In this document: positions 1 to 12,364 of the stretch, one piece after another
Layout of the letters: every line of letters begins with the position of its first letter
Numbering within the stretch: the stretch's first letter is position 1
Assembly: GCA_043718025.1 (NCBI GenBank)
Contig: JAYSWN010000072.1
Coordinates: 1 to 12,364 of the forward strand
DNA length: 12,364 nt
Source of the DNA: Pseudomonadota bacterium
GTDB taxonomy: Bacteria > Bdellovibrionota > FAC87 > UBA2466
Direction of reading: 5' to 3'
Position numbers and translations under genes: made by a program
Notes under the pieces: generated by a model
The model's input: only the letters and a program-made list of their open reading frames with translations
What the model was told of the DNA's origin: nothing
The model's database searches: none

Positions 1-1
1 T

Positions 2-313
2 AGCGGCCTCGCTCTAAAGGTTCCGGCGGGTTCAGTACAGCGATTTGAAATGGGCGTGGTGCGGCGGCGAAGCGAGCAGAGCGTGTTGATGACGGCCTAT
101 GGGGCGGATGGAACGACGCTAATGCGGCAGTGTACAGTTCCCGCGACGTCATTGTTGTCTGGTGGCCACGAAACTACGGTGTGCGAGTTTGTATTCGCCG
201 AAAATAAATTGTTGCAACAGATCTTGTTAAGCTCAGCACTGCCGGTAACGATCTTAAGTCCTATCATCGTGCAACGGCCAGTGGATGAAGATGGCCCGGT
301 CGCCAGTCGATAA
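2..313 (+). CDS. Partial CDS (5'-truncated by the window edge), C-terminus of an unknown protein
   Basis: The frame of the 50..313 ORF is open back to position 2 (SGLALKVPAGSVQRFE-MGVV...) and ends at TAA 311-313, 7 nt from the convergent stop at 321. No recognisable motif. Confidence 0.6.
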   Translation, partial: SGLALKVPAGSVQRFEMGVVRRRSEQSVLMTAYGADGTTLMRQCTVPATSLLSGGHETTVCEFVFAENKLLQQILLSSALPVTILSPIIVQRPVDEDGPVASR

Positions 314-320
314 TTAGCCA

Positions 321-2240
321 CTATTCAAATACGCGAAGGTGTCCAAAGGCCATGGGAAAAGCATTAAACTGGGGACGAATGGCAATGGCATCGAATCCCG
401 CGGTTTGGGCCGGCCGTGGAATTTGAATCGTTCGAGTTAAGATTCCCAATCCTGCGGCCGCTGGTAGCGGGGCGATTCCCACTTCCTGGTCCCCTTTGAG
501 AAAGACCAGCGTTGCATTTTTTGAGCGATCCGCGCTCAACTCGACCCTAGGCGCGTGCGATAGTGAACCCATTTCGATGAGCAGGCCGTTTTGTCCCATT
601 GGGGTGAGGCCCGAAGCATTGCTAGCGGCGCTATCCCGTACCACGGCTTGAGTCTCCGCCAGCCGAACCGAATGGCCTCCGTAGCGGTAGCGTCTTTTGT
701 CGACTAGCTGATCGTAGCGACCCAAGTTCATACTTAAAATGGCGCCCCACCTCGCTTTTGTGAAGAGATCGCCGCGGGTGATGAGCATCACTTTTTCCCA
801 GAAAACACCGAGCGCAGGATCTTTGAGCCAATTTTTTCCCGCCAGGGCCGACTCAGGGTAGCCCTCGGGAACTTCCCGCTTAAAATGTCCAATTCGCCAA
901 GTCGCGTTGTACGAGGCCGGTAATCGAGACAGCAGTGGATCGGCCAGCGAGTGCAAGTCAATAAAGTGCGCCTCTGGCCCCGCCTGGAAACCACCCAAGC
1001 CAATCAGCGTGGTGGCAACTACGCGACGGCCTCCAGAGGGAGCAGCAACTCGCAGATCGTTTCGTGAGAGTGTGGTTAAGCCGAAATAAGGCACGTACCA
1101 CGCACGCTCGTCGGCGATCCCCGCCTTTTCAAGTTTATGGCGACTTGAACTTGCCGTGAGTTGCGACCCGTTTGTGCGCAGTCCCAGCGCAATGAGCAAA
1201 CCAGCGGCAGTTATTATCGTGGCCAGTGATTTTCGCCGTTCCAGCTTAAGTGAGAGCAAAGCGAACGTTGAAGACAGCACGGTCGTCGAAAAAAATCGGC
1301 CGGCCATAAAATCTCCGCCGACCCACAACACGTAGATTAGGTGAGAAAGAATTCCGAACGTAAGGGCTAAAGTCTTCGGATTACGAAACAACAATCCCGT
1401 GGCGACGGCGGTGAAAATTACGATCACGCCCAGCGGATCAAACCTCGCAAAATTAATAAAATAGAGCAGTCCCTGACCAAGGTATTCGCCGCGATTAATT
1501 CCGGTAAGCACTTTAGCGTAGTACGGCCCGGGCAAAAAATTTCCATAGTAGACCAGGGCGAAGAGTTCCCAGGCGAAAAGGGGCGACAGTCCCAAAGCGA
1601 GCCATCCAAAAAAGTTCGGACTACCCCGATGCTTCCACAGCCCGTAGCCCAGCGGCGGCAAGAGCAGCCACAGGTTATCGAGCCGATTCACCAAGGCGAG
1701 CGAAAAAAAGAGGGTGAGCGCAAAAACCTGGTGCGGTTTTTCGGTAGGGCTAAGAAGGCGTTCTACGAATTTTGCAATTAAGAAATAAGAAAGTGCGGTT
1801 TCAAGCCCACCGGCTCCATGCTCGGTGACGGCGCGAGAAAAGAGAAGCGCCGAGGCGGCAACCAGGGCGGCTAGCGGCCCGCGGGCGATTTGTCGGGTCG
1901 CCACAAAGAGAGTTCCCATCCAGAAAAAAAAGGAGATGGCGAGCGTCGTATAAAACGGTTCGCGGGTGATGGAGTAGGCAACGGTGAGCAATAAGACCCA
2001 CAGCGGATTGGTAAAGGCTTGAACCCGCTCGGCCACGTTCCATCTTAACCCGTAGCCATTTACAAAGTTATCGACCACCCGAAGGCAGATAAAAGCATCG
2101 TCTCCCATCCACGCTAAGCGCACAAAAACGATAAGCCCCACGGCCATGGTGGTGGCCACTACCGCGCGATGGCGGATGGCGAGCGAAAGCCCCCTTGTTC
2201 GGTCTGCAAACAAAAGAAAAGGGGACCGAACGTTTTCCAT
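321..2240 (-). CDS. AftB-like (arabinofuranosyltransferase-family, GT-C fold) polytopic membrane glycosyltransferase with an extra C-terminal soluble domain
   Basis: 639 aa with many hydrophobic segments. First-loop motif WMGDDAFICLRVVDNFVNGYGLRWNVAERVQAFTNPLW (DD at aa 47-48), plus YYGNFLPGPYYAK, VGGDFMAGRF and IDLHSLADPLLSRLP...WRIGHF, all resembling AftB-family motifs. Sugar specificity cannot be read from sequence. Confidence 0.8.
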   Translation of the reverse strand: MENVRSPFLLFADRTRGLSLAIRHRAVVATTMAVGLIVFVRLAWMGDDAFICLRVVDNFVNGYGLRWNVAERVQAFTNPLWVLLLTVAYSITREPFYTTLAISFFFWMGTLFVATRQIARGPLAALVAASALLFSRAVTEHGAGGLETALSYFLIAKFVERLLSPTEKPHQVFALTLFFSLALVNRLDNLWLLLPPLGYGLWKHRGSPNFFGWLALGLSPLFAWELFALVYYGNFLPGPYYAKVLTGINRGEYLGQGLLYFINFARFDPLGVIVIFTAVATGLLFRNPKTLALTFGILSHLIYVLWVGGDFMAGRFFSTTVLSSTFALLSLKLERRKSLATIITAAGLLIALGLRTNGSQLTASSSRHKLEKAGIADERAWYVPYFGLTTLSRNDLRVAAPSGGRRVVATTLIGLGGFQAGPEAHFIDLHSLADPLLSRLPASYNATWRIGHFKREVPEGYPESALAGKNWLKDPALGVFWEKVMLITRGDLFTKARWGAILSMNLGRYDQLVDKRRYRYGGHSVRLAETQAVVRDSAASNASGLTPMGQNGLLIEMGSLSHAPRVELSADRSKNATLVFLKGDQEVGIAPLPAAAGLGILTRTIQIPRPAQTAGFDAIAIRPQFNAFPMAFGHLRVFE

Positions 2241-2270
2241 AGTGATTTTTTTTAACCTTGAGGCTCTCGC

Positions 2271-2299
2271 ATTTTAGCCAGCTTTCGTAGGGCGTTCAA
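2271..2299 (-). promoter_or_regulatory. Putative sigma70-type promoter of the AftB-like gene
   Basis: Minus strand reads TTGAAC (2299-2294), a 17-nt spacer, then TAAAAT (2276-2271), ending 30 nt upstream of the ATG at 2240. Confidence 0.6.
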
Positions 2300-2382
2300 G
2301 CCGCGCGCCCGAAGCAAGCTGTCCAGCAATGATACCCCTGGCCTACCCATTTTTTAGTTAGCGTGCTTCCATCGCCCCTACG

Positions 2383-3561
2383 ATGAGTTTAGTCATAGTT
2401 CAGCCGCACCGCTCTGCAGTTAGCGAAACTTTTATCCGCGCCCACACCCGGCTGCCGACTGCGACTACGGTATTGCACGGGTTTCCCGCTGAGTACGTGG
2501 ATGGCCCCATCCTCAGCTCAAACTTTGGCGCGCGAGCCCTGCGCCGGATAGATCGGATGCTGAGTGGAAAAGGGGCGCAGTGGGAAATGACTCGCTCGCT
2601 TCTCATCGCCTTGAAAGACTGTAAGGCCGAAGCCGTACTCGCCGAATACGGCACCACCGGCGCCCACGCGGCCGAAGCCTGCCACATTTCAGGCGTGCCA
2701 CTCATCGTTCACTTTCACGGCTACGACGCCAGCCACACGCCAACGCTTCGCCACTATGGCGAGCGGTACCGGCAAACATTTTTAGTGGCTAAAGCCTTGG
2801 TCGTGGTCTCGCGCCCGATGCAGCAAGCACTTTTAGACTTGGGGGCGCCGGCCGATAAGATTCATTTTTGTCCTTACGGCGTCGATACCGATTTCTTTTC
2901 GCCACCACCGAGTCCGGAACTTAGGCCACCTACGACGGCGCCACTTTTTATCGCGGTGGGACGCCTCGTAGAAAAAAAGGCACCGCACTTACTGCTGCTG
3001 GCCTTTGCTAATGTGCTGGCCCAGTTTCCGAAGGCGCGATTGCAAATTATAGGTGACGGGCCGTTGCGCGGTGTTTGTCGGGATTTAGTGCCCGCCTTGG
3101 CGATGGAACATGCGGTTACCTTTCTTGGTGAGCGGTCGCCGCAGCAGGTGCGCGATGCGCTTCGCGGCGCCCAAGTTTTTGTGCAGCACTCAGTGACCGC
3201 GTTTGATGGCGATAGCGAGGGCACTCCGGTTGCCATTCTCGAGGCCAGCGCCAGTGGTCTGCCGGTAGTCTCTACGCACCACGCCGGAATTTCTGAAGCG
3301 GTAATTGAGGGGGCGACGGGTTTTTTGGTCGAGCCCGGAAATAGCCAGGCCATGGCCGAACGGATGACGTTTTTATGCCGCGATTCGGCGGCGGCCCAAA
3401 GGCTGGGCGCTAACGGCCGCCAACACGTTCTGGCTAATTACGCGCAAGGGCCGCAGCTTGCCCAACTTTGGTCGGTCATCCACCAAGCCATTGAGGCCGC
3501 AAAGCAGGCGAAAAGTGTCACCGCTCTGCATCAGAGTTTGGTAATGGTTCCGGTGGGTTAA
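2383..3561 (+). CDS. Glycosyltransferase family 4 (GT-B), WcaL/AmsK-like
   Basis: 392 aa. N-terminal SETFI, VHFHGYD, VGRLVEKK, IIGDGPL, and the retaining-GT EX7E motif GDSEGTPVAILEASASGLPVVST (E codons at 3217 and 3241), followed by HAGISEAVIEGATGFLV. Confidence 0.9.
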   Translation: MSLVIVQPHRSAVSETFIRAHTRLPTATTVLHGFPAEYVDGPILSSNFGARALRRIDRMLSGKGAQWEMTRSLLIALKDCKAEAVLAEYGTTGAHAAEACHISGVPLIVHFHGYDASHTPTLRHYGERYRQTFLVAKALVVVSRPMQQALLDLGAPADKIHFCPYGVDTDFFSPPPSPELRPPTTAPLFIAVGRLVEKKAPHLLLLAFANVLAQFPKARLQIIGDGPLRGVCRDLVPALAMEHAVTFLGERSPQQVRDALRGAQVFVQHSVTAFDGDSEGTPVAILEASASGLPVVSTHHAGISEAVIEGATGFLVEPGNSQAMAERMTFLCRDSAAAQRLGANGRQHVLANYAQGPQLAQLWSVIHQAIEAAKQAKSVTALHQSLVMVPVG

Positions 3562-3654
3562 TCGTCACGCGACGGCGCCCCACCGCGTCTTCGTTTCATT
3601 AGATCTATTTTTGCGTTTGTGCTAGTTTCACGCCCAATTTTCTTTGCATCCTTT

Positions 3655-3659
3655 AGAGG
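3655..3659 (+). promoter_or_regulatory. Shine-Dalgarno (AGAGG) for the MFP gene
   Basis: AGAGG lies 5 nt before the ATG at 3665, which favours this start over the TTG at 3644. Confidence 0.55.
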
Positions 3660-3664
3660 CTCCC

Positions 3665-4537
3665 ATGAATTTATGGTTCTCCCTATTTTTGATCTTAACG
3701 CCGTGGAGCGGTGCCTTCGCTGCCATCGAAAAGCCCGGTCCTCCTTTGGTTTTCGTGGAGAAGATGAAATCTGCGGCACTGCATGACGAACTTACTTATC
3801 CCGCGCGTTTAGTTTCTAAAACCTCGGCCGCACTGCTTGCCGAAACCGACGGGGTGGTTAGAAAAATTTCGGCGCCGTTGGGCCGTGCGGTGAAGCGCGA
3901 AGAGACCGTGCTAACCATCGCCAATACCGATCCCATTTACGAATACGCCCCGATGGCGGTTCGTAGTCCCGTAGCCGGCGTGGTGAGCTCGGTTGAGGTT
4001 ACCGAAGGTAGCCGGGTGGCAAAGGGGCAACGGCTCGCTTCGGTTACCGATCCGGCGCAAGTAAAAATTTTGGTCGAAGTGGCCGCGGCCGATCTGTTTG
4101 CCATCACGCGCGGACTATCCGGCGAACTTTCCGTAAATTCGCAAGTGAAACCAATCAACGTCACCGTGATTGGCATGAGCCCCTTTGTTGATCCGGGCAC
4201 GGGTACCGCCACGGTAGAGCTTTCACTCGTTGATACCAAGAGCAAAGTTCCGCTGCCGCCGGGGCTGGTGGGCAAGGTCAGTTTTAAAGTGCGTGAGCAT
4301 CAGGGGCTACAGCTTCCTGAAAGTGCGGTGGTCTACCGCGGCCGTCTGCCGGCGGTGCGGGTGGTTGAAAGCGGTAAGGCCCGCTACGCCCCGGTTACGC
4401 TGGGGCCTTCGCGCCAGGGGCTGGTCGAGATTTCGCAGGGAGTGAAAGAAGGGGCCGAGGTTATCTTACGATCGAGCGCCTTCGTGGCCGAAGGCGAAGA
4501 GGTAAAAGTTCAACCTGCCGAAGGGCCTAAATCTTGA
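3665..4537 (+). CDS. RND efflux periplasmic adaptor subunit (membrane fusion protein), lacking the alpha-helical hairpin
   Basis: 290 aa from ATG 3665. Signal-like N-terminus (...SGAFA/A), lipoyl halves ETDGVVRKI...G.AVKREE.VL.I and VRSPVAGVVSSVEVTEGSRVAKGQRL, beta-barrel SPFVDPGTGT and LPPGL, membrane-proximal LPESAV...VTLG...VEISQGVKEG. Its stop overlaps the RND start (TTGA). Confidence 0.9.
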   Translation: MNLWFSLFLILTPWSGAFAAIEKPGPPLVFVEKMKSAALHDELTYPARLVSKTSAALLAETDGVVRKISAPLGRAVKREETVLTIANTDPIYEYAPMAVRSPVAGVVSSVEVTEGSRVAKGQRLASVTDPAQVKILVEVAAADLFAITRGLSGELSVNSQVKPINVTVIGMSPFVDPGTGTATVELSLVDTKSKVPLPPGLVGKVSFKVREHQGLQLPESAVVYRGRLPAVRVVESGKARYAPVTLGPSRQGLVEISQGVKEGAEVILRSSAFVAEGEEVKVQPAEGPKS

Positions 4538-7500
4538 GCAAACTCTACTCGTCACCCCTCAGGGTCTATTTGATGCTGGGCTTTTTGGGTCTGCTGGGAA
4601 TCTACGCCGGATTCAATCTGCCGGTATCGCTGTTTCCCAACAGTTCAAAGCCGGTGGTGTGGTTCAGCATTCCTTACGGCAACCTGACCAGCGAAGAGTT
4701 TTTAAACACCCATGGCAAGGCCATAGAAAATCAGGTTCGTGGCATTACCGTCGACAAGGCGGAGGTTGAGGTCATTCAGGCGTTTTACGGAAGGCATAGC
4801 GCCGAATTCGAAGTATTTTTTAAATGGGGAGCCATTCCCAATACCGCGCTCAAAGAGGTGCAGACGCTGGTCAACTCGTACGTTGCGCGTTTGTCCGATG
4901 AGTCGCGCGATGGCTTAAGGCTCTGGCTCAATAACGAGAACTCCGGTTTTTTTGCGGTTAGCTTTTTTAGTGAAACGCGCGATCTCGACGATCTCTATGA
5001 TTATTTAGAGCCCTTAATTGGCCCCAAAATAGCAAAAGTGAAAGACGCCCAAGACCCCGTACTGTGGAATCCTTCGAGCAAAGAGGTGCGGGTAGAGTTT
5101 AATCCCAACACCATGGCGGCCTTGGGGCTGTTTCCGCGCGACGTTGACCAAGCCATTGCCACGTCACTCGGTGGCCGCAACGGTGGTGCCCTCACCATTG
5201 GAAATTCTCGTCTGCAAGTGGAGATGCCGCGGCAACTTCAAAAGGCCGAAGACTTAAAGCACGTGCCAATTATTTCCCCGGCCGGCCGCATGGTTCATTT
5301 AGGCGATTTCGCCCACATTAGCGTTGGCCCCAAAACCCAAGACTCAAAGAGTTTCAAAACCAACGGCGCCCCGAGTTTGATCCTATTCGCCACCCCGCGC
5401 CCCGGCGGCAACGTAAAACGCATGTCGGAAGAGCTGCTTCAGGTGGTGACCGAGCTGATGCCCACTTTGCCCAAAGACATTCAATACCGGGTACTGGTTG
5501 ACCCCTCCGAGTTCATCCGGTCGGCGGTTGAAAATGTGTTTCACGAAGTGGCGATTGCCGCGTTGCTGGCGGTGTTCATTCTTTTCTTGTTCATCGGTAG
5601 CGTGCGCAACGTGATTACGGCGGCCATCGAGATTCCGCTGAGCATGATCTTGGCCTTTATTCTCATGCGTTGGACCGGAATGAATTTGAATCTGATTTCG
5701 CTGGGCGGCTTGGCCCTTTCGGCCGGCATGAACGTAGATGGTTCGGTGGTGGTGATGGAAAACATTTTTCGTCATTTCGAACTTGAGCCCGGTCCGCACG
5801 ATGCGCCGTCGCGCCTGCGCCTGGTGATGAAAGCGGTCAGCGAAGTTCGTTTCCCGATCATCGCATCCACGATTGCGTCGTTGGTGGTCTTTTTGCCGTT
5901 AACCCTAACCTCGGATTTGAGTTACGCCATTTTAGGTGACCTTGCCTACGCCGTGGTCTTTTCGCACGGTTTTTCGGCGATCGTCGCTTTGCTGCTCGTG
6001 CCCACCGTGCGCTTGCACCTGATGCAATCGGGTAAAGACGTTGGCCATTCGCACTCGCCGATCGAAAAACAGCTTAAAGGGCTGGAGAGTTGGTACGGCC
6101 GGACGCTCGGCAGGTTTTTGCTTGCTCCCAAGTTTCGTCTCGGCAGTTACGCGGGCCTTTCGTTGGCGCTCGTGTTGCTAGTGCTGCTGGTGATTCCTCG
6201 TCTGCCAAAAGAGATCGTAGGGGTGCCCGATACTGACTGGATGGTGCTTTCGATCAACACCGAGGGCAACACCCTGGTAAAGCAGATGGAAGTGCAGACC
6301 GAGGAGATCGAAAAGCAGCTGCTAACCGAGTTTGGCTCTAAGGTCCGTTACACTTTCAGCCAAGTGCGCGATCCCAACCGCGGCAACTTGATGGCGCGGC
6401 TAAAAAACAAAGGCGAAATGCGCGAGGTGTGGAAGGCCCTGGAGAAGCGCTTTACCAACACGCCTCTACTTCGTTTTTGGGTCGGGCCGTGGAACCCCAG
6501 CGAACTTCCTATTCCTAACCCTCCCGACATGCGAATTGCGGTGCGCGGAGGTACGTTGCTTGATCGGGCTAGTGTGGCCAAAGAGATTAACGATTTGATG
6601 GAGGAGAAAAAAGTTTTTCCGCGTATCGAAATGCAGCCGAAAGCTGACATGACCTTCTCGTTAGTGCTGTCGCCGTACAACGAACAGTGGGAAAGTTTGC
6701 GGCAGCAGGGGGCCCGATTTAGCGCCGGCGATCTCGCCGACTTGGTTCGTGTCGCCACGCAAGGGCGGCGTACTGCCTATTTGCCCTTGAAAGATCGTCA
6801 GACCGAGATCGTTTTTCAGTTTCCGCAAAATTATGCCACCTCCGTCGAAGACGTGGCGGCACTACCGGTTGGGGTCAGTTCTAAAATTATTCCGCTGAAA
6901 GCCTTAGCGAGGGTCGAACGGCAAGAGGCCCTTCCCTCGTTATTCAGAGAAGACCAGCGCGAGCTTTTTGTGGTTAAGGGGCGAGTCCCGAGCAACGAAC
7001 TTAAGAAAGATACGGCCCCTTACCTGGCAAAGGCCAAGCTCGCGGTCGCGGAGTGGGAAAGCAAAAGACCTAAACCGGTACCCGGAGCGGTAGCCCCTAC
7101 GGTAACCTTCGAAGAGGCTTCAACCGAGCTGAAGGACGCTATCCATCAACTGTCGGTGGCGTTGGCGCTTTCGGTGGTGCTGATCTTTTTGACCATGCTG
7201 TTTCAGTTCGGCAGCTTTGCCGAGCCCTTGCTGGTGTTGGTATCTATTCCGCTCGGGTTTATCGGGGTGTTGATTTCGCTCTTTGTTTTTGGCAGCACGC
7301 TTTCGTTGAATTCGATCTTGGGCGTGATTCTACTCAATGGGATTTCGGTGGCGAACAGCATTATTCTCGTTGATTTCATCAAACGACTGGTGGATTCGGG
7401 CATGAGTCCAAAGGAGGCAGCGATTGAAGCCGCCCAAAAACGGTTGCGCCCTATTTTGATCACTTCGCTCACTACCGTGTTGGGCATGCTGCCGGTTGCC

Positions 7501-8982
7501 ATTGGCCTGGGTGAGGGCGGTAGAATTTTGCAGCCGCTGGGCATCGCGGTGTCGGGGGGGCTATGGGTTTCAATGGGGCTGACGCTCTTTTTGGTTCCCG
7601 CTCTGCAGGTGAGTTATCTCGAATGGCGAAGCCGTGAAAATACCGGCGATGGCTTCTGGATGCGAATTTTTAGCCTGGTGAAATGGCGGCGAAACACTGG
7701 AACCGTTCCGGCGGCATTTTTTCTCGCGGTTCTGGGCACTTTTTGGAGTCAGACCGTAGTGGCCGCGCCGGCTTCGTTCGAAGCCGCTTTGCAAACAATT
7801 GTAGAACGACATCCAGATGTTGGCATTGAAAAGGCGGCGCTAAATTCGTTAGAGAGTAAAAATCTGTCGTCGCATTTAAGTCTGCTTCCGAGCATTTCCT
7901 TGTTTGCTCGGCAACGTAATGACGAAGCCTTTAGTGCCACTTCGGTAAAAAAGGGCGTAGGCCTTTCGGCAGACATCAATATTTTAAAGTTTGGTGCCGA
8001 CGTGGCGGCCATGCGCGCTGCTTCCGCCGAAGAGTCGGCACAAGAGGCCAGTGTGGTGCTGTCGGTGCTGAAAGTCGAAGCCTTGGGCGTAAAGGCACTG
8101 GCGGCGACCATTCAAGCCGAGTTGGAATTTGGCGTGCAGAAAAAAATTGTAACGATGTGGGAGGACTACCTCAAAATAGCTAGGCAGCGTTACCAGCAGG
8201 GGCGACTGGCTTCGCAGGAGGCCGACAAGGTAGAAATTGATTTTGAAAATGCCCGCGCCCAAATGCGGGATGCGGAGTCGAATGCGGTGAGCGCCCACGC
8301 CGAATTAACCGCCTATCTCGGCCAGCCGGAAGTCGAAGTGAGTTGGCCGTGGCGTGCGCTTTTAGAAGGGTACGCCGAAAAGGGGATCGCCGAACCGGGA
8401 ATAGACCTGTCGCGCCGGCCCGATTGGATTGCCGCCGAAAAGCGCAGCGTGGCCGTGGGGCATCGCGAGTCTCAAGCATTGGGTAACGCCCTGCCTTCGC
8501 TAGACGCCAATTTCACCTACGGCTACTTTGATAACCGCATGGCGGGCGTAAGTTCGAACGGCCCCGAGTGGTCAGCAAGTGTCGCCTTAACTGTGCCGCT
8601 CTTTGATAGGCTAACGAAATACGGAGATTACCGGGCAATGGTGCACCGTCGCGCCGGGGCAGAATTGGAATGGGAAAAGACAAAACGCTTCGCCAAAGCT
8701 GACTGGGAGGCGGCGGTGGGATCGCTAAACGTCTCGCTAAAAACCGCCCACGCTCGCGAAGGCACCGTGGCATTGGCCCGGCGGCTCTATGAAGATAATT
8801 TAAAACGTTTTCGCCAGGGGCTTGCCGCAGTTACCGAGGTTAGCGTAGACCAAGACCGCCTGTACCGCGCCGAAATCTTAGCGATTCGGGGCTGGAACGC
8901 CGCCCACCTGAATTTGGTTCGTTTTTGTCACGCCAAAGGGGACCGTGTGGCCATTTGCCTGAGGAGCGCCTCGGCAAAGTAA
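4534..8982 (+). CDS. RND efflux permease (AcrB/CzcA superfamily) fused in frame to a C-terminal TolC-family outer-membrane factor
   Basis: 1482 aa with a TTG start overlapping the MFP stop. aa 1 to ~1030 carry RND motifs: LPVSLFP, LFLFIGSVR...IPLS, NLISLGGLALSAGMNVDGSVVVMENI, FQFGSFAEPLLVLVSIPLG, RLRPILITSLTTVLGMLP, LQPLGIAVSGGL, LTLFLVPAL. aa ~1078-1482 carry two OEP-like repeats: LLPSISL / ALPSLDANF, RYQQGRLAS / RFRQGLAA, RRPD, LTVPLFD. Confidence 0.92.
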   Translation: MSKLYSSPLRVYLMLGFLGLLGIYAGFNLPVSLFPNSSKPVVWFSIPYGNLTSEEFLNTHGKAIENQVRGITVDKAEVEVIQAFYGRHSAEFEVFFKWGAIPNTALKEVQTLVNSYVARLSDESRDGLRLWLNNENSGFFAVSFFSETRDLDDLYDYLEPLIGPKIAKVKDAQDPVLWNPSSKEVRVEFNPNTMAALGLFPRDVDQAIATSLGGRNGGALTIGNSRLQVEMPRQLQKAEDLKHVPIISPAGRMVHLGDFAHISVGPKTQDSKSFKTNGAPSLILFATPRPGGNVKRMSEELLQVVTELMPTLPKDIQYRVLVDPSEFIRSAVENVFHEVAIAALLAVFILFLFIGSVRNVITAAIEIPLSMILAFILMRWTGMNLNLISLGGLALSAGMNVDGSVVVMENIFRHFELEPGPHDAPSRLRLVMKAVSEVRFPIIASTIASLVVFLPLTLTSDLSYAILGDLAYAVVFSHGFSAIVALLLVPTVRLHLMQSGKDVGHSHSPIEKQLKGLESWYGRTLGRFLLAPKFRLGSYAGLSLALVLLVLLVIPRLPKEIVGVPDTDWMVLSINTEGNTLVKQMEVQTEEIEKQLLTEFGSKVRYTFSQVRDPNRGNLMARLKNKGEMREVWKALEKRFTNTPLLRFWVGPWNPSELPIPNPPDMRIAVRGGTLLDRASVAKEINDLMEEKKVFPRIEMQPKADMTFSLVLSPYNEQWESLRQQGARFSAGDLADLVRVATQGRRTAYLPLKDRQTEIVFQFPQNYATSVEDVAALPVGVSSKIIPLKALARVERQEALPSLFREDQRELFVVKGRVPSNELKKDTAPYLAKAKLAVAEWESKRPKPVPGAVAPTVTFEEASTELKDAIHQLSVALALSVVLIFLTMLFQFGSFAEPLLVLVSIPLGFIGVLISLFVFGSTLSLNSILGVILLNGISVANSIILVDFIKRLVDSGMSPKEAAIEAAQKRLRPILITSLTTVLGMLPVAIGLGEGGRILQPLGIAVSGGLWVSMGLTLFLVPALQVSYLEWRSRENTGDGFWMRIFSLVKWRRNTGTVPAAFFLAVLGTFWSQTVVAAPASFEAALQTIVERHPDVGIEKAALNSLESKNLSSHLSLLPSISLFARQRNDEAFSATSVKKGVGLSADINILKFGADVAAMRAASAEESAQEASVVLSVLKVEALGVKALAATIQAELEFGVQKKIVTMWEDYLKIARQRYQQGRLASQEADKVEIDFENARAQMRDAESNAVSAHAELTAYLGQPEVEVSWPWRALLEGYAEKGIAEPGIDLSRRPDWIAAEKRSVAVGHRESQALGNALPSLDANFTYGYFDNRMAGVSSNGPEWSASVALTVPLFDRLTKYGDYRAMVHRRAGAELEWEKTKRFAKADWEAAVGSLNVSLKTAHAREGTVALARRLYEDNLKRFRQGLAAVTEVSVDQDRLYRAEILAIRGWNAAHLNLVRFCHAKGDRVAICLRSASAK
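7660..7764 (+). other. Internal signal-peptide-like linker between the RND and OMF moieties
   Basis: MRIFSLVKWRRNTGTVPAAFFLAVLGTFWSQTVVA|AP has a basic n-region, a hydrophobic h-region and a polar c-region ending in V-x-A. Confidence 0.6.
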
Positions 8983-8990
8983 ACTATTTT

Positions 8991-8994
8991 GGAG
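8991..8994 (+). promoter_or_regulatory. Shine-Dalgarno (GGAG) for the ABC-F gene
   Basis: GGAG lies 5 nt upstream of the ATG at 9000. Confidence 0.6.
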
Positions 8995-8999
8995 TAAGT

Positions 9000-10580
9000 A
9001 TGATTAGCACAACAGATCTGTCATTGGCCTTTGCCGGGCGCCGCCTTTTCGACAACGTGAACGTAAAGTTTGTGGCCGGTAATTGTTATGGATTAATCGG
9101 GGCCAACGGCGCCGGAAAATCTACCTTTCTCAAAATTTTGGCCGGGCTAGAAACCCCCTCTTCGGGCACGGTAGCCATCACCCCGGGCGAGCGGCTCTCT
9201 TTTTTGCGGCAGGACCACTTTGCCTTCGACGACCGCACGGCTTTAAAAACCGTGATCATGGGCCAACCCAAACTCAACTCGTTAATTGAAGAGCGAGAAG
9301 CACTTTACGCTAAAGCTGAGTTTTCGGATGCCGACGGCGACCGTGCCGCCGAGCTGGAGTCTGAATTTGGCGACATGAATGGCTGGAACGCTGACTCTGA
9401 TGCGGCCACCATGCTCTCGGGGCTGGGAATTGATACCGAGCTGCACGAAACTAAAATGAGTGAGCTCAACGGCTCGCAGAAAATTAAGGTACTTCTGGCC
9501 CAGGCGCTATTTGGAACTCCCGACATTCTTTTACTCGACGAACCTACCAACCATTTAGACTCTGAGGCCATTCGCTGGTTAGAAGATTTTTTGTACGACT
9601 TCGAACAAGTAGTGATCGTGGTCTCCCATGATCGTCATTTTTTGAACAAAGTCTGCACCCACATGGCCGACATCGACTTTGGTAAGATTGAGCTCTATTC
9701 GGGTAACTATGATTTTTGGTATGAGTCGAGCCAGCTCGCGCTGCGTCTGCAACAGGAAAAAAATCGTAAGTCCGACGACAAGGCCAAAGAGTTAAAAGAG
9801 TTTATCGCCCGATTTAGCGCCAACGCGTCTAAGTCAAAACAGGCCACTTCACGCAAGAAGCAGCTTGAAAAGTTGACCCTCGATGACATCAAGCCTTCTT
9901 CTCGCAAATACCCGTTCGTTGGCTTTAAGCCCGAGCGCGAGGCGGGGGATCAGCTTTTGAAAGTAGAAAACTTATCGAAAGTGATCGACGGCAAAGAGAT
10001 CTTAAGCAACGTCACCTTTACGATCAAAAAGAACGAGAAGGTGGTTTTTGTAGGCGACGAAATCGCTAGCTCCACTTTATTTGAAATATTGGTGGGCAAT
10101 CTTTTACCCGACTCTGGAACGTTCAATTGGGGAATCACCACGTCGCAGGCCTACTTTCCCAAGGAGAACGCCAAATTTTTTGAGCGCAACGACATGAACC
10201 TGATTGACTGGCTTCGGCAGTATTCAGACGAGAAAAGCGAAACGTTTATTCGGGGCTTTTTAGGGCGAATGCTTTTTTCCGGTGAAGAGACCTTGAAAAA
10301 GGTGTCGGTGCTATCCGGAGGCGAAAAGGTACGCTGCATGCTTTCGCGTATGATGCTTGGTTCGGCCAATGTGCTTTTGCTCGACGGCCCCACCAACCAT
10401 CTCGATTTGGAATCGATTACCGCGGTTAACAATGGACTGGTGCGATTTGCCGGCACCATCTTGTTCACCTCGCACGATCATCAGTTTAACCAGACCATTG
10501 CGACGCGAGTGATTGAACTCGTGGCGTGGGGTGCCGAGAGTCACGAGATGTCGTACGATCAGTACTTAGAACAGAAGTAG
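9000..10580 (+). CDS. ybiT: ABC-F family ATP-binding protein (ribosome-associated, YbiT/YkpA subfamily)
   Basis: 526 aa from ATG 9000, with two ABC domains and no TM segments. Motifs: GANGAGKST, LLLDEPTNHLD, VSHDRHFLN, YSGNYDFW, linker FIARFSANASKSKQATSRKK, LSGGEKVRC, LLLDGPTNHLDLESI, SHDH. The subfamily call rests on recalled similarity. Confidence 0.9.
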   Translation: MISTTDLSLAFAGRRLFDNVNVKFVAGNCYGLIGANGAGKSTFLKILAGLETPSSGTVAITPGERLSFLRQDHFAFDDRTALKTVIMGQPKLNSLIEEREALYAKAEFSDADGDRAAELESEFGDMNGWNADSDAATMLSGLGIDTELHETKMSELNGSQKIKVLLAQALFGTPDILLLDEPTNHLDSEAIRWLEDFLYDFEQVVIVVSHDRHFLNKVCTHMADIDFGKIELYSGNYDFWYESSQLALRLQQEKNRKSDDKAKELKEFIARFSANASKSKQATSRKKQLEKLTLDDIKPSSRKYPFVGFKPEREAGDQLLKVENLSKVIDGKEILSNVTFTIKKNEKVVFVGDEIASSTLFEILVGNLLPDSGTFNWGITTSQAYFPKENAKFFERNDMNLIDWLRQYSDEKSETFIRGFLGRMLFSGEETLKKVSVLSGGEKVRCMLSRMMLGSANVLLLDGPTNHLDLESITAVNNGLVRFAGTILFTSHDHQFNQTIATRVIELVAWGAESHEMSYDQYLEQK

Positions 10581-10582
10581 AT

Positions 10583-11512
10583 TTGGCTAAACGGTTTCAA
10601 AAGGTAAATATCGAGATCAGCAACATCTGCAACTTGCAGTGTAGCTTTTGTCCCCCGGTTAACCGTAAAAAGGGGATGATGGAACCGGCGCTTTTTGCCG
10701 ACATTATTCGCGCCGTGGCCCCGCTCACCGAACAGGTCTGTTTTCATTTGATGGGCGACCCGCTAGTGCACCCTGAATTGACGACGCTACTCGACATCTG
10801 CCAACGGCATGCCACGCGCGTATTTTTTGTTACCAATGGGGTTCTGCTCAGCGATAAAGCCGCCGTCCTGCTTATGCATCCGGCCCTTCGACAAGTTAAT
10901 TTTTCTCTGCACAGCTTTCACGATAACTACGGTGACAAAGACCCAACCCCCTACCTGCAAAAGATTTTTGCATACACTGAACGCGCTTTTGAAATTAGGC
11001 CCGATCTCTATATCAATTACCGAATTTGGAATTTGCAAGAAGCGCGCGGTAGCACCGTGATGCAAACGGATATTCTTTCGGCCGTTGAAAAGCGTTTCGG
11101 AGTCACCGTAAATCGTGACCCCAACGTGCGGCACCGTAAAGGGCACCGCCTTAAGCATCGGCTTTATGTTCATTACGACACTGAATTTGTCTGGCCTGAT
11201 TTGAATCTGCCGCTACTCGGTGAAGAGGGGCGCTGCCATGGACTCAGCACCCATTTCGGAATTTTGGTGGATGGCACGGTGGTGCCTTGTTGTTTAGACA
11301 AAGAAGGAAAGATTGCTCTGGGAAACGTAACCTCGGCGCCGCTTACCCAGATTCTGGATTCTCCGCGCGCTAAGGCCATGGTTACCGGTTTCCAAAACGG
11401 GAAGTTGGTCGAAGAACTTTGCCGTCGTTGTCAGTACATTGAGCGTTTTCCGAAACTAAAGAAAAACCTACGGGCTAGCGATGAAAATTCGGCACGGGGA
11501 ATTGGGGCATGA
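10583..11512 (+). CDS. Radical SAM protein with a C-terminal SPASM/twitch-type Fe-S domain
   Basis: Likely TTG start at 10583, 2 nt after the ABC-F stop (MAKRFQKVNIEISNI..., 309 aa). CNLQCSFC is a CxxxCxxC motif (10628-10651), followed by MGDPLVHP, VTNG and C-terminal CHG...GILVDGTVVPCCLD...LGNV...LCRRC. Confidence 0.88.
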   Translation: MAKRFQKVNIEISNICNLQCSFCPPVNRKKGMMEPALFADIIRAVAPLTEQVCFHLMGDPLVHPELTTLLDICQRHATRVFFVTNGVLLSDKAAVLLMHPALRQVNFSLHSFHDNYGDKDPTPYLQKIFAYTERAFEIRPDLYINYRIWNLQEARGSTVMQTDILSAVEKRFGVTVNRDPNVRHRKGHRLKHRLYVHYDTEFVWPDLNLPLLGEEGRCHGLSTHFGILVDGTVVPCCLDKEGKIALGNVTSAPLTQILDSPRAKAMVTGFQNGKLVEELCRRCQYIERFPKLKKNLRASDENSARGIGA

Positions 11513-12068
11513 GGCTCTGTTCCACTTCGCTTAGCCGTTGCACGTCTTCTTGCGTACGCTGAATGATTGTGACGATGGTTTTTACATCGGCCCACTCCAG
11601 CATTTTGAGCCTGGCCAGAGCATCGTTGCGCAGGCTTGAAGCGGCCGATTCGTCGCCCAACATTAGGCGGCCGACCTTGGCCGACCAGCTGTCTAGCGTG
11701 TCTAAATAGAAGAACAACAGTTCATCTCGGCACAATTCGGTAAGTGCTTTGTTGCTGTCGTGAAACGAGATCATGGTAACCCGCCGATCTCTTTCTTCGC
11801 AACCTAAGGTGCGCCCCTTGGTTTCAACCCAACGGACCAGCTTTTTATCGAAGCTGGTCAGGCTGCTCTCTTTGGATCGGATGATGGCTTTGAATTGGGA
11901 AAAGAGCCTGAGCCAGTCGCCGTACCGGCTTATCACCGCGGCTTCGAGCGCCAATCTAAAAAGCGATAGCGAGGTGCCTTCATCGCTGCGGTTTGAGGCT
12001 TTTACTTCGCGTAACGATTTTAGGGCTAGATCCGAAAGGGTGATGACTAAGGATGAACTACGAAACAT
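11475..12068 (-). CDS. Hypothetical protein (197 aa, appears soluble and mostly alpha-helical)
   Basis: Long open frame with ATG at 12068, preceded by GGAGGT at 7-nt spacing and by a sigma54-like promoter. No recognisable motif. Its 3' end overlaps the rSAM gene by 38 nt. Confidence 0.75.
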   Translation of the reverse strand: MFRSSSLVITLSDLALKSLREVKASNRSDEGTSLSLFRLALEAAVISRYGDWLRLFSQFKAIIRSKESSLTSFDKKLVRWVETKGRTLGCEERDRRVTMISFHDSNKALTELCRDELLFFYLDTLDSWSAKVGRLMLGDESAASSLRNDALARLKMLEWADVKTIVTIIQRTQEDVQRLSEVEQSLMPQFPVPNFHR

Positions 12069-12075
12069 GCGACCG

Positions 12076-12081
12076 ACCTCC
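12076..12081 (-). promoter_or_regulatory. Shine-Dalgarno GGAGGT
   Basis: Minus strand reads GTGGAGGTCGGTCGC-ATG. Confidence 0.75.
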
Positions 12082-12100
12082 ACCTTGTGCTTAGTACTTC

Positions 12101-12116
12101 AGCAAGCCACATGCCG
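12101..12116 (-). promoter_or_regulatory. Putative sigma54 (RpoN) -24/-12 promoter
   Basis: Minus strand reads CGGCATG-TGGC-TTGCT against consensus TGGCACG-N4-TTGCW, with exact GG-N10-GC spacing. This predicts a TSS near 12090, just upstream of the SD. Confidence 0.7.
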
Positions 12117-12172
12117 AATTATTACCCGGTGTATTCACGCTTGGAATACGAAGGTGTCTTAAAGATCTCATG

Positions 12173-12284
12173 CCTACGCGCTTCTCAAAGGTGCCCAAAC
12201 GCGCTTTTTACTGACGCCGAGGTTCTTTTTTGCGCGAGGCTTCGATTGGAGTGGGTTGTTTCCTACGAGAGTTTCTCAAAAGTG
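12173..12284. repeat. Imperfect direct repeat pair CCTACG-N3/5-TTCTCAAARGTG
   Basis: Copies are 12173-12193 (cctacgcgcttctcaaaggtg) and 12262-12284 (cctacgagagtttctcaaaagtg). The 12-nt cores are 11/12 identical and 91 nt apart. Confidence 0.4.
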
Positions 12285-12320
12285 GTATTTCGCCGTCATT
12301 GCGTCTATGGAAAAGGAACA

Positions 12321-12360
12321 CAAGGGAAAAAGACTCCCCTGACAAGAGCTAGGCCCTTGT
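12321..12360 (-). terminator. Tandem hairpins, possible terminator or structured RNA element
   Basis: Minus strand reads ACAAGGGC-CUA-GCUCUUGU, then CAGGGGAG-UCUUU-UUCCCUUG (both fully paired with G-U), followed by UGUUCCUUUU. Context is cut by the window end. Confidence 0.3.
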
Positions 12361-12364
12361 TTTT

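Follow-up and report, generated by a model that had tools for sequence, protein, structure and literature searches.

The window, i.e. the whole stretch of 12,364 nucleotides analysed, corresponds to contig JAYSWN010000072.1 (positions 1 to 12,364, forward strand) of assembly GCA_043718025.1, from a Bdellovibrio-related bacterium (GTDB Bdellovibrionota; FAC87; UBA2466), whose genome is a MAG in 234 contigs. Two adjacent genes, reported with their parts in Table 1, are of interest here: one for a periplasmic adaptor, the other for a single chain, where an RND permease is followed by a TolC-like outer-membrane factor (OMF). GAGG is found upstream of the adaptor ATG, and the adaptor stop overlaps the start of the following frame by 4 nt (TTGA). 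The proposal of an earlier note, made from the letters of this DNA, that the two genes form a tripartite pump, is supported. Beyond the adaptor, flanking genes are not conserved: the largest cluster of unrelated neighbours is present at 6 of 80 loci, and genomic context therefore gives no substrate.

Table 1. Position of the two genes and of their parts within the window, with the basis of each assignment
Feature	Position	Strand	Basis or remark
Periplasmic adaptor (MFP), 290 aa, N-terminal signal peptide, no alpha-helical hairpin (BesA-like)	3665..4537	+	HlyD_3, HlyD_D23, RND_mfp above cut-off
TDPIYEYAP, short conserved loop at the usual place of the adaptor hairpin	3926..3952	+	D and P nearly invariant in a 63-row alignment
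RND-OMF fusion ORF, 1482-aa probable precursor, TTG start	4534..8982	+	no internal stop; ACR_tran and OEP matches
RND permease part, residues 1-1024, through TM12	4534..7605	+	ACR_tran 17-1024; hydropathy
Basic cytoplasmic loop after TM12, putative n-region of internal signal, residues 1025-1056	7606..7701	+	6 K/R vs 3 D/E
Residues 1057-1077, h- and c-region of putative internal signal peptide, with cut predicted after Ala1077 (7762-7764)	7702..7764	+	cleavage-site matrix
TolC-like outer-membrane factor in its predicted mature form: 405 aa, with two OEP repeats and four beta-strands	7765..8982	+	Pfam; AlphaFold2/Foldseek
Candidate internal starts ATG 7660 and GTG 7678, both in frame	7660..7680	+	no Shine-Dalgarno motif upstream; absent from same-genus L003

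The N-terminal portion of this fusion ORF is a full-length RND permease (PF00873): the ACR_tran match covers model positions 18-1016 (535 bits, E 3e-160), and hydropathy indicates a 12-helix layout with two periplasmic loops. OEP (PF02321), the lack of which would have counted against a fusion, matches twice from residue 1082 onward (E 4e-32), placing the C-terminal part among TolC/OprM-type OMFs. No other OEP match is present on the contig and, as already noticed, the window carries no separate OMF gene. The AlphaFold2 model of the C-terminal part (71-row alignment, mean pLDDT 91) has the predicted fold of an OMF protomer, with four strands and long helices; Foldseek matched it over its full length to TolC, OprM and CusC (best E 3e-18, TM about 0.7). 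The same alignment-based model is uninformative on the joint between the two parts (pLDDT below 55), which the other rows do not contain, and a single-sequence AlphaFold2 model from TM8 to the end (pLDDT 41) was set aside. In the ESM Atlas, residues 1000-1200 hit clusters of RND and TolC fragments and nothing else.

The fusion is real, and not an assembly error, because the frame runs on without interruption across the junction in the other three genomes of the genus, as it does in 14 of 19 ortholog-carrying genomes, out of 41 searched. In the sister family it is fused in 4 of 4 genomes, and the window belongs to an all-fused clade of 11 rows (support 96). Across 7600-7800 the other two frames are each closed by stops. 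Logan contigs from two runs span 3500-9200 with zero differences, these runs being possibly the source of the window DNA; among the contigs of all other runs none covers the junction, four runs giving scattered pieces only. An error or a recent stop loss, to which a 234-contig MAG, the frequency of split relatives and the possible origin of the sole junction-spanning contigs from the source data might point, has a negligible probability and is refuted for the window's lineage by the open frames across genus and sister family.

For the pump, none of the NCBIfam RND subfamilies (AcrB, MdtB/C, CusA/CzcA, RND_permease_1/2) scores over its cut-off, the best reaching 439 of 1250 bits; CusA/CzcA scores 278 bits, with a cut-off of 701. 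The AcrB-type HAE-1 proton relay, Asp-Asp in TM4, Lys in TM10 and Arg/Thr in TM11, is absent as such: TM4 features a single Asp, followed by Ala or Gly, in 90 of 92 orthologs (two not scored), and the TM10 Lys column contains Ala in 12 of 12 aligned sequences, while the TM11 Arg/Thr is kept. The putative cargo is most likely small organic compounds, exported by proton antiport; the present data suggest neither a new substrate nor clinical resistance.

The adaptor lacks the hairpin that commonly separates the two lipoyl halves: their distance is 47 aa, versus 114-118 in two hairpin-bearing adaptors. A span of 46-47 aa is found in 63 of 66 family adaptors, i.e. in all those covering the region, the other three ending at contig ends. 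The window adaptor matches PDB 4KKS at gap-free length over residues 30-280; it contains no Cys, and is therefore not a lipoprotein adaptor of the BesABC type.

Of the 92 distinct orthologs collected, mostly from Bdellovibrionota, 41 are fused and 51 split; the nearest relatives of the window, from the same genus, are fused. Fused forms do not constitute one clade (AU p 2e-85), and the state switches at least 9-11 times. A fused row that stands alone and comes from a single MAG could result from an indel error. RND-TolC fusions were mentioned in the earlier note for Bacteroidota, and they do exist. A tree with one clade of Bacteroidota and window-family fusions is rejected (AU p 0.0004, 27 rows), supporting an origin of the window-family fusions independent of the Bacteroidota CzcA-TolC ones. 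The suggested independent fusion event is thus upheld with respect to Bacteroidota, but not as a single event within the family. In 39 of the 51 split loci, the pump stop and the channel start overlap by 4 nt, by which split relatives probably approach a 1:1 ratio already. A slippery-like heptamer, of the kind used in programmed -1 frameshifting, is present in 12 of the 51 split tails (an uncontrolled count).

The segment joining pump and channel, overlooked in the earlier note, resembles a signal peptide. In the window it is 53 residues long (1025-1077), and consists of a short hydrophobic core preceded by a basic loop and followed by a polar, long c-region, which ends with a Val-x-Ala site. 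Potential cleavage sites were scored by a home-made matrix (not SignalP), trained only on the 51 split-channel signals, which superseded, along with its controls, a permissive -3/-1 rule passing nearly everything. The best site in the window scores 10.1 bits, the runner-up 4.6 (shuffle p 0.035). A score over the threshold is reached by 33 of 41 fused joints, 1 of 42 split RND tails, 59 of 459 RND transmembrane stretches and 9% of shuffles; 30 fused joints score better than their own shuffles (p <= 0.05), while the other 11 do not. Less favourable to cleavage are the median scores, 8.9 bits for fused joints versus 12.0 for free signals, with eight of the 41 joints below threshold, as well as the polar, long c-region of the window and its modest shuffle p. 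Ala is found at -1 in 33 of 41 joints, and small residues are kept at -1 and -3. The relatives share descent and are not independent, so that all these counts, like the others reported for the family, overstate significance.

The remaining features are in line with a signal of this type. A hydrophobic core (8-residue KD mean of 2 or above) is present in 40 of 41 fused joints and in all 51 split-channel signals, but only in 2 of the 42 split RND tails long enough to be counted (15 aa or more); the median apolar core is 10 residues long in fused joints, 9 in split-channel signals. The loop is net positive in 41 of 41 joints, versus 29 of 51 split RND tails. A Met within 8 residues of the core is found in 5 of 41 fused forms (background about 18%), versus 40 of 51 split ones. 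In six close relatives, identity to the window is 28-45% for the joint, 83-94% for TM8-12 and 46-75% for the channel: the joint keeps its properties, not its letters. Its length also varies, from 41 to 85 aa across fused forms. A lipoprotein signal at the front of the channel is ruled out, the lipobox pattern being found in none of the 41 fused and 51 split sequences (0 of 92). The mature OMF domain is preceded by an export signal with a signal-peptidase-I-like site, and this n/h/c signal lies between two proteins, as in signal-peptidase-processed bacterial polyproteins of the FbcH type; three signal peptidase I genes are present in the genome. Comparable joints are found in Bacteroidota: of 97 distinct ones, 81 follow the Q-rule, with Gln at +1 relative to the best site, a residue that according to PMC5837995 marks the substrates of signal peptidase I in this phylum.

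The 1482-aa chain is therefore likely a precursor; these patterns predict that signal peptidase I divides it into a pump and a channel of the usual kind. Both are encoded in one open frame. From the known topology of RND proteins, the C-terminus of the pump should be cytoplasmic, so that a 13th hydrophobic segment would be needed to carry the channel across the membrane; the joint, being arranged in n-, h- and c-regions like a Sec signal peptide, could provide it. Sec would then move the channel into the periplasm, and signal peptidase I would cut after Ala1077; the signal would remain attached to the pump as an extra 13th helix, unless trimmed. The channel trimer would be inserted by periplasmic chaperones and BAM, as established for TolC-type proteins, and pump and channel trimers, which probably dock directly, as in the model put forward for BesABC, would assemble with the adaptor lacking the hairpin. 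The arrangement may have arisen from split operons: as their stop and start codons overlap, the frames would be joined by a frameshift, or by loss of a few nucleotides, in the pump tail, which is poorly conserved, and the channel signal would stay in place. Such joining would have occurred, or been reversed, many times. As to the earlier note, the single frame is confirmed, but a mature two-membrane protein of 1482 aa is not the most likely product; since the joint appears to be an internal signal peptide, the fixed 1:1 RND:OMF ratio would hold for synthesis, not for the mature complex.

Alternatively, translation of the channel might mainly begin inside the joint, at ATG 7660 or GTG 7678, so that the channel carries a normal N-terminal signal; the long product would then be a by-product, or be cut as well. 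Both codons yield plausible signal peptides in the window; GTG-Lys, found in the joint of 3 of 4 genus members with DNA, occupies in L002 and L004 a position like that in the window. More generally, ATG, GTG or TTG is present within 20 codons of the core at 19 of 23 fused loci with DNA, and 58 of 95 Bacteroidota joints have a Met ahead of the core. Yet no Shine-Dalgarno motif, present at most split channels, precedes either codon; L003, L009, L034 and L084 have no such codon within 20 codons of the core, and a Met near it occurs in fused forms at background frequency. Full-length pumps, moreover, would each still carry a channel tail needing handling. An internal start is accordingly unlikely as the main source of the channel.

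Precursor cleavage might also be late, or due to another protease, keeping the channel by the pump during early assembly and so compensating for the missing adaptor hairpin, which elsewhere recruits the channel. The hairpin-less adaptor of the family, the somewhat lower cleavage-site scores of fused joints and the persistence of the fused state over deep clades fit with this. However, 47 split loci feature the same adaptor family, the complete ones sharing the hairpin-less span, which indicates that fusion is not needed; a Flavobacterium fusion is served by a hairpin-bearing adaptor, and neither sequence nor length of the joint is conserved. Such timed processing is very improbable. The broader idea, that making an inner- and an outer-membrane protein from one chain is a recurring solution, where a timed cut lets the pump deliver the channel above itself, in place of the lost recruitment by the adaptor hairpin, so that a directly docked pump without a hairpin would be built from a polyprotein, is speculative and rather improbable.

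Finally, the chain might stay uncut, the 13th segment serving as a permanent anchor of a two-membrane protein, or the channel part might be dead weight, another TolC serving the pump. Cleavage is here a prediction, the 19-residue hydropathy of joints (1.75) is little below that of TM12 (1.92), and seven other OMF genes are present in the genome. A channel placed in the outer membrane would, on the other hand, lie roughly 100 angstrom away, and the 6-22 residues between core and folded channel are too few to bridge this distance. The channel part is intact and conserved, its tree agrees with that of the pump (Spearman 0.79, 600 pairs), and small residues at -1 and -3 are kept; an uncut chain is thus hardly credible.

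Processed polyproteins are regarded as rare in bacteria. A literature search, mostly of openly available papers in their main text, found nothing on RND-OMF fusions or their processing, and no processed bacterial polyprotein whose products reach two different membranes. Fusion terms are absent from PMC10434189 and 10.1101/2022.11.11.516240, from PMC4446572 (passages), from the first 300,000 of the 747,818 characters of PMC8277102, and from the main text of PMC10872679 (6205 permeases), whose supplements may list fused proteins. Should the cut prove real, signal peptidase I is able to free an outer-membrane protein that follows a transporter of 12 helices, and a channel gene is hidden in many entries of about 1450 aa that carry the annotation of a plain RND permease. 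The family offers a natural experiment, with closely related fused and split versions of one pump that all have an adaptor lacking the hairpin; by it the benefit of 1:1 co-synthesis for assembly may be tested, as may the sealing of the duct by hairpin-less pumps, described in the review PMC4446572 as the biggest challenge for tip-to-tip models.

Compared to known systems, the locus resembles AcrAB-TolC, MexAB-OprM and MdtABC-TolC (HAE-1/NFE/HME) in combining an RND pump, an adaptor and a TolC-fold channel in one operon, and among solved structures MdtB (9LYQ, E 6e-67) is closest to its pump in sequence. It differs from pumps of the AcrAB-TolC type in that pump and channel are one ORF, in its hairpin-less adaptor, and in the presence of a single Asp in TM4 and the absence of Lys from TM10. 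BesA of Borrelia burgdorferi (PDB 4KKS; PMC3807786) likewise lacks the alpha-hairpin and has a nine-residue loop between the lipoyl halves; BesA, however, is lipid-anchored and besCAB are separate genes, while the window adaptor has neither Cys nor lipobox, and pump and channel are fused. The same succession of RND permease, internal signal and OEP is found in Flavobacterium sp. CBA20B-1 (WP_264563277.1, 1452 aa), annotated only as CusA/CzcA. This protein is 23% identical, and groups with metal-type pumps, apart from the window's family; its hairpin-bearing adaptor is encoded downstream, while the hairpin-less one of the window lies upstream. The closest parallel for the proposed processing is FbcH of Bradyrhizobium japonicum, a cytochrome b-c1 precursor reportedly cut at an internal signal peptide: there too, a polytopic inner-membrane protein is followed by the signal, and cleavage generates two proteins. 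Both FbcH products reportedly stay in the inner membrane, whereas the second product of the window's precursor would reach the outer one.

The fusion ORF bears out the permease-channel polypeptide described in the earlier note: Pfam places ACR_tran at residues 17-1024 and two OEP repeats from residue 1082. The C-terminal part, modeled from a 71-row alignment (pLDDT 91), is predicted to form two beta-hairpins and TolC-type long helices, and the model matches TolC, OprM, CmeC and CusC over its length. The source is a metagenome-assembled genome of 4.14 Mb in 234 contigs, one of which is the entire window; elsewhere in this genome, OEP is matched on a further seven contigs.

Features of the window and of the fusion product (nucleotides, unless residues are indicated)
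Feature	Position	Strand	Remarks
639-aa membrane protein	321-2240	-	no Pfam match; N-terminus weakly matches NF041481, a model of terminal arabinofuranosyltransferases (E 6e-9, well short of its cut-off); probably a GT-C type glycosyltransferase
GT4 glycosyltransferase	2383-3561	+	nearest model WcaL, score under cut-off; absent beside the pump in other loci
Adaptor	3665-4537	+	shares four bases with the TTG start of the fusion ORF; family-wide, BesA-like, no alpha-hairpin, no lipobox
Fusion ORF	4534-8982	+	uninterrupted for 1482 codons
TM4 motif	5737-5742	+	Asp, then Ala/Gly
TM10 motif	7348-7356	+	Ala replacing Lys
Basic loop after TM12	residues 1025-1056		
Hydrophobic core	residues 1057-1070		
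c-region	to residue 1077		ends TVVA; folded channel begins about four residues on
ABC-F ATPase	9000-10580	+	begins 18 bases past the fusion; best model PRK15064 (623, cut-off 762)
Radical SAM/SPASM	10526-11512	+	follows the ABC-F gene; neither adjoins the pump in other loci
202-aa protein	11475-12083	-	no Pfam or NCBIfam match

Orthologs were found in 19 of 41 searched genomes (14 fused, 5 split); the four genomes of the genus and the four from the sister family all have a fused form. Sampling across the phylum revealed an ortholog (E <= 1e-120) in 71 of 401 genomes; at 16 of these matches the frame is open for at least 1455 aa, the rest being split or cut by contig ends. A scan of species genomes contributed the best 80 of 265 loci, mostly under Bdellovibrionota titles, on which the assignment to this phylum is based, and a protein search 25 proteins of fused length (the window's own included) and 33 unfused pumps. 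After 16 of the 129 classified loci were dropped, for a missing pump end or channel, the remaining 113 and 24 fused proteins gave 137 entries, 92 of them distinct once 45 duplicates were removed. The comparison of fused and split homologs suggested in the earlier note found both states, 41 fused and 51 split, a fused share that is inflated because a search favoring fused lengths supplied 18 of the 41; restricted to genome loci, it is 23 of 74. Three loci, L030, L051 and L058, are titled WWE3, Sulfitobacter and Polynucleobacter, at odds with their placement inside the Bdellovibrionota pump family, and L051 is almost identical to a Halobacteriovorax locus: they are likely mislabelled or mixed bins. 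Loci L113 (genome G328), with one stop within the pump match, and L125 (G240), with an open frame of merely 723 aa, are possibly broken copies.

In split loci the channel carries its own signal peptide, and its start overlaps the pump stop by four bases in 39 of 51. Fused joints, 41-85 aa long, resemble such signals, in counts that are descriptive, since kin are not independent: 40 of 41 joints and 51 of 51 free signals have a hydrophobic core, but only 2 of 42 split pump tails do. With a cleavage-site matrix trained exclusively on split-channel signals, 33 of 41 fused joints reach the threshold, compared with 1 of 42 tails, 59 of 459 transmembrane stretches of the pump and 9% of joints after shuffling; 30 of 41 joints outscore their own shuffles (p <= 0.05). 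In the window, the top predicted site follows Ala1077 (10.1 bits, p 0.035). Against the signal reading, the median score is lower in fused joints than in free signals (8.9 versus 12.0), and 8 joints fall under the threshold. The loop has a net positive charge in all 41 fused joints versus 29 of 51 split tails, which is what the positive-inside rule would demand of a 13th segment oriented N-in, C-out. The joint diverges rapidly in sequence (28-45% identity in six relatives, where TM8-12 show 83-94%), and only 6-22 residues separate the core from the folded channel. No lipobox was seen among the 92 entries.

We consider it likely that the 1482-aa chain is a precursor, passing from Sec to signal peptidase I to BAM. 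Sec would insert the 12 pump helices, the 13th segment would thread the channel out, signal peptidase I (three genes in this genome) would release it, and BAM would insert it; the sequence itself shows the fusion and the signal pattern, while cutting, sorting and assembly of the products are what we infer. Production of the channel from an internal start within the joint appears unlikely: a Met within 8 residues of the core is found in just 5 of 41 fused joints, against 40 of 51 split forms. Such a start is more open in Bacteroidota fusions, where 58 of 95 joints keep a Met before the core. Timed or other processing of the joint, as an aid to assembly, is more doubtful still, the hairpin-less adaptor being common to split loci too; a channel left uncut or unused is slightly less probable again. 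An artefactual fusion is barely credible. At the junction, which the earlier note proposed to check, contigs from two runs, possibly the assembly's own source, cross with zero differences (contigs from four further runs cover other regions).

A FastTree phylogeny of the 92 pump domains requires at least 11 changes of state (9 with forks under 95 freed), versus 22 or more, mean 30, for shuffled labels. The channel tree (89 rows) likewise yields 11, and the two trees correlate at 0.79 in their path lengths. These counts pool gain and loss, and the true number may be lower, since some fused rows that stand alone and come from one MAG each may reflect indel errors. A single clade of fused forms was rejected, on 30 hand-picked rows, for both pump (AU p 2e-85) and channel (p 6e-5). 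The window belongs to a clade of 11 rows, all of them fused (support 96). Where the stop and start codons of an operon overlap, a frameshift or deletion in the pump tail would offer an easy route to fusion.

The pump scores below the cut-off of every NCBIfam subfamily and is roughly equidistant from all solved pumps, MdtB being the best. It has one TM4 Asp and lacks the TM10 Lys, a reduced proton-relay set that is family-wide. Its placement outside the metal-type clade prompts the guess that it may export small organic compounds.

No conserved neighbors of the pump were found across loci. As a homolog of the 202-aa protein directly abuts the fusion 3' end in the other three same-genus genomes (L002-L004), either the window gained the ABC-F and radical SAM genes by insertion or those three genomes lost them. 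In another RND operon of the window's genome (L132, contig C185), the channel gene immediately precedes the pump, with no adaptor between.

Flavobacterium plasmid protein WP_264563277.1 (1452 aa), annotated as CusA/CzcA only, contains ACR_tran and OEP, as do its best 120 listed relatives (120 and 119 of 120, respectively). Among 97 distinct Bacteroidota joints (from 121 proteins, all close relatives of this single query), the top-scoring site carries Ala at -1 in 82 cases and Gln at +1 in 81. Gln at +1 is described in PMC5837995 as a mark of signal peptidase I substrates in Bacteroidetes, so this lineage points independently to cleavage. Met-Lys is often retained right before the internal signal (locus L155:2334-6692, proteins P0061-P0180), unlike in Bdellovibrionota fusions, and is a possible nested start. 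Bacteroidota fused pumps, 23% identical to the window's, cluster with the two metal-type pumps of the window's genome, and uniting them with the window's family in a single clade is rejected (p 0.0004, 27 rows), in line with the independent fusion event that had been supposed.

The window's adaptor has 47 residues across its lipoyl halves, versus 114-118 in two hairpin-bearing adaptors; the span is 46-47 in 63 of 66 family adaptors, from fused and split loci alike, the other three being cut by contig ends. Literature searches and word look-ups of reviews and papers found no study of RND-OMF fusions. Among solved structures, 4KKS, identified as BesA of Borrelia burgdorferi, matches the adaptor from one end to the other with no difference in length. 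BesA, which likewise lacks the hairpin, has a nine-residue loop in its place, and its authors argue that direct contact between pump and channel is then a necessity (PMC3807786; PMC4446572). Since split loci share the same adaptor, compensating for the missing hairpin does not depend on fusion. All parts of the fusion are known folds, and the architecture is present, unremarked, in public Bacteroidota annotations. Bradyrhizobium FbcH, the cytochrome b-c1 precursor, is a processed bacterial precedent. The window adds an independent lineage with repeated switching between fused and split forms, in which the internal start is lost and the adaptor lacks the hairpin.
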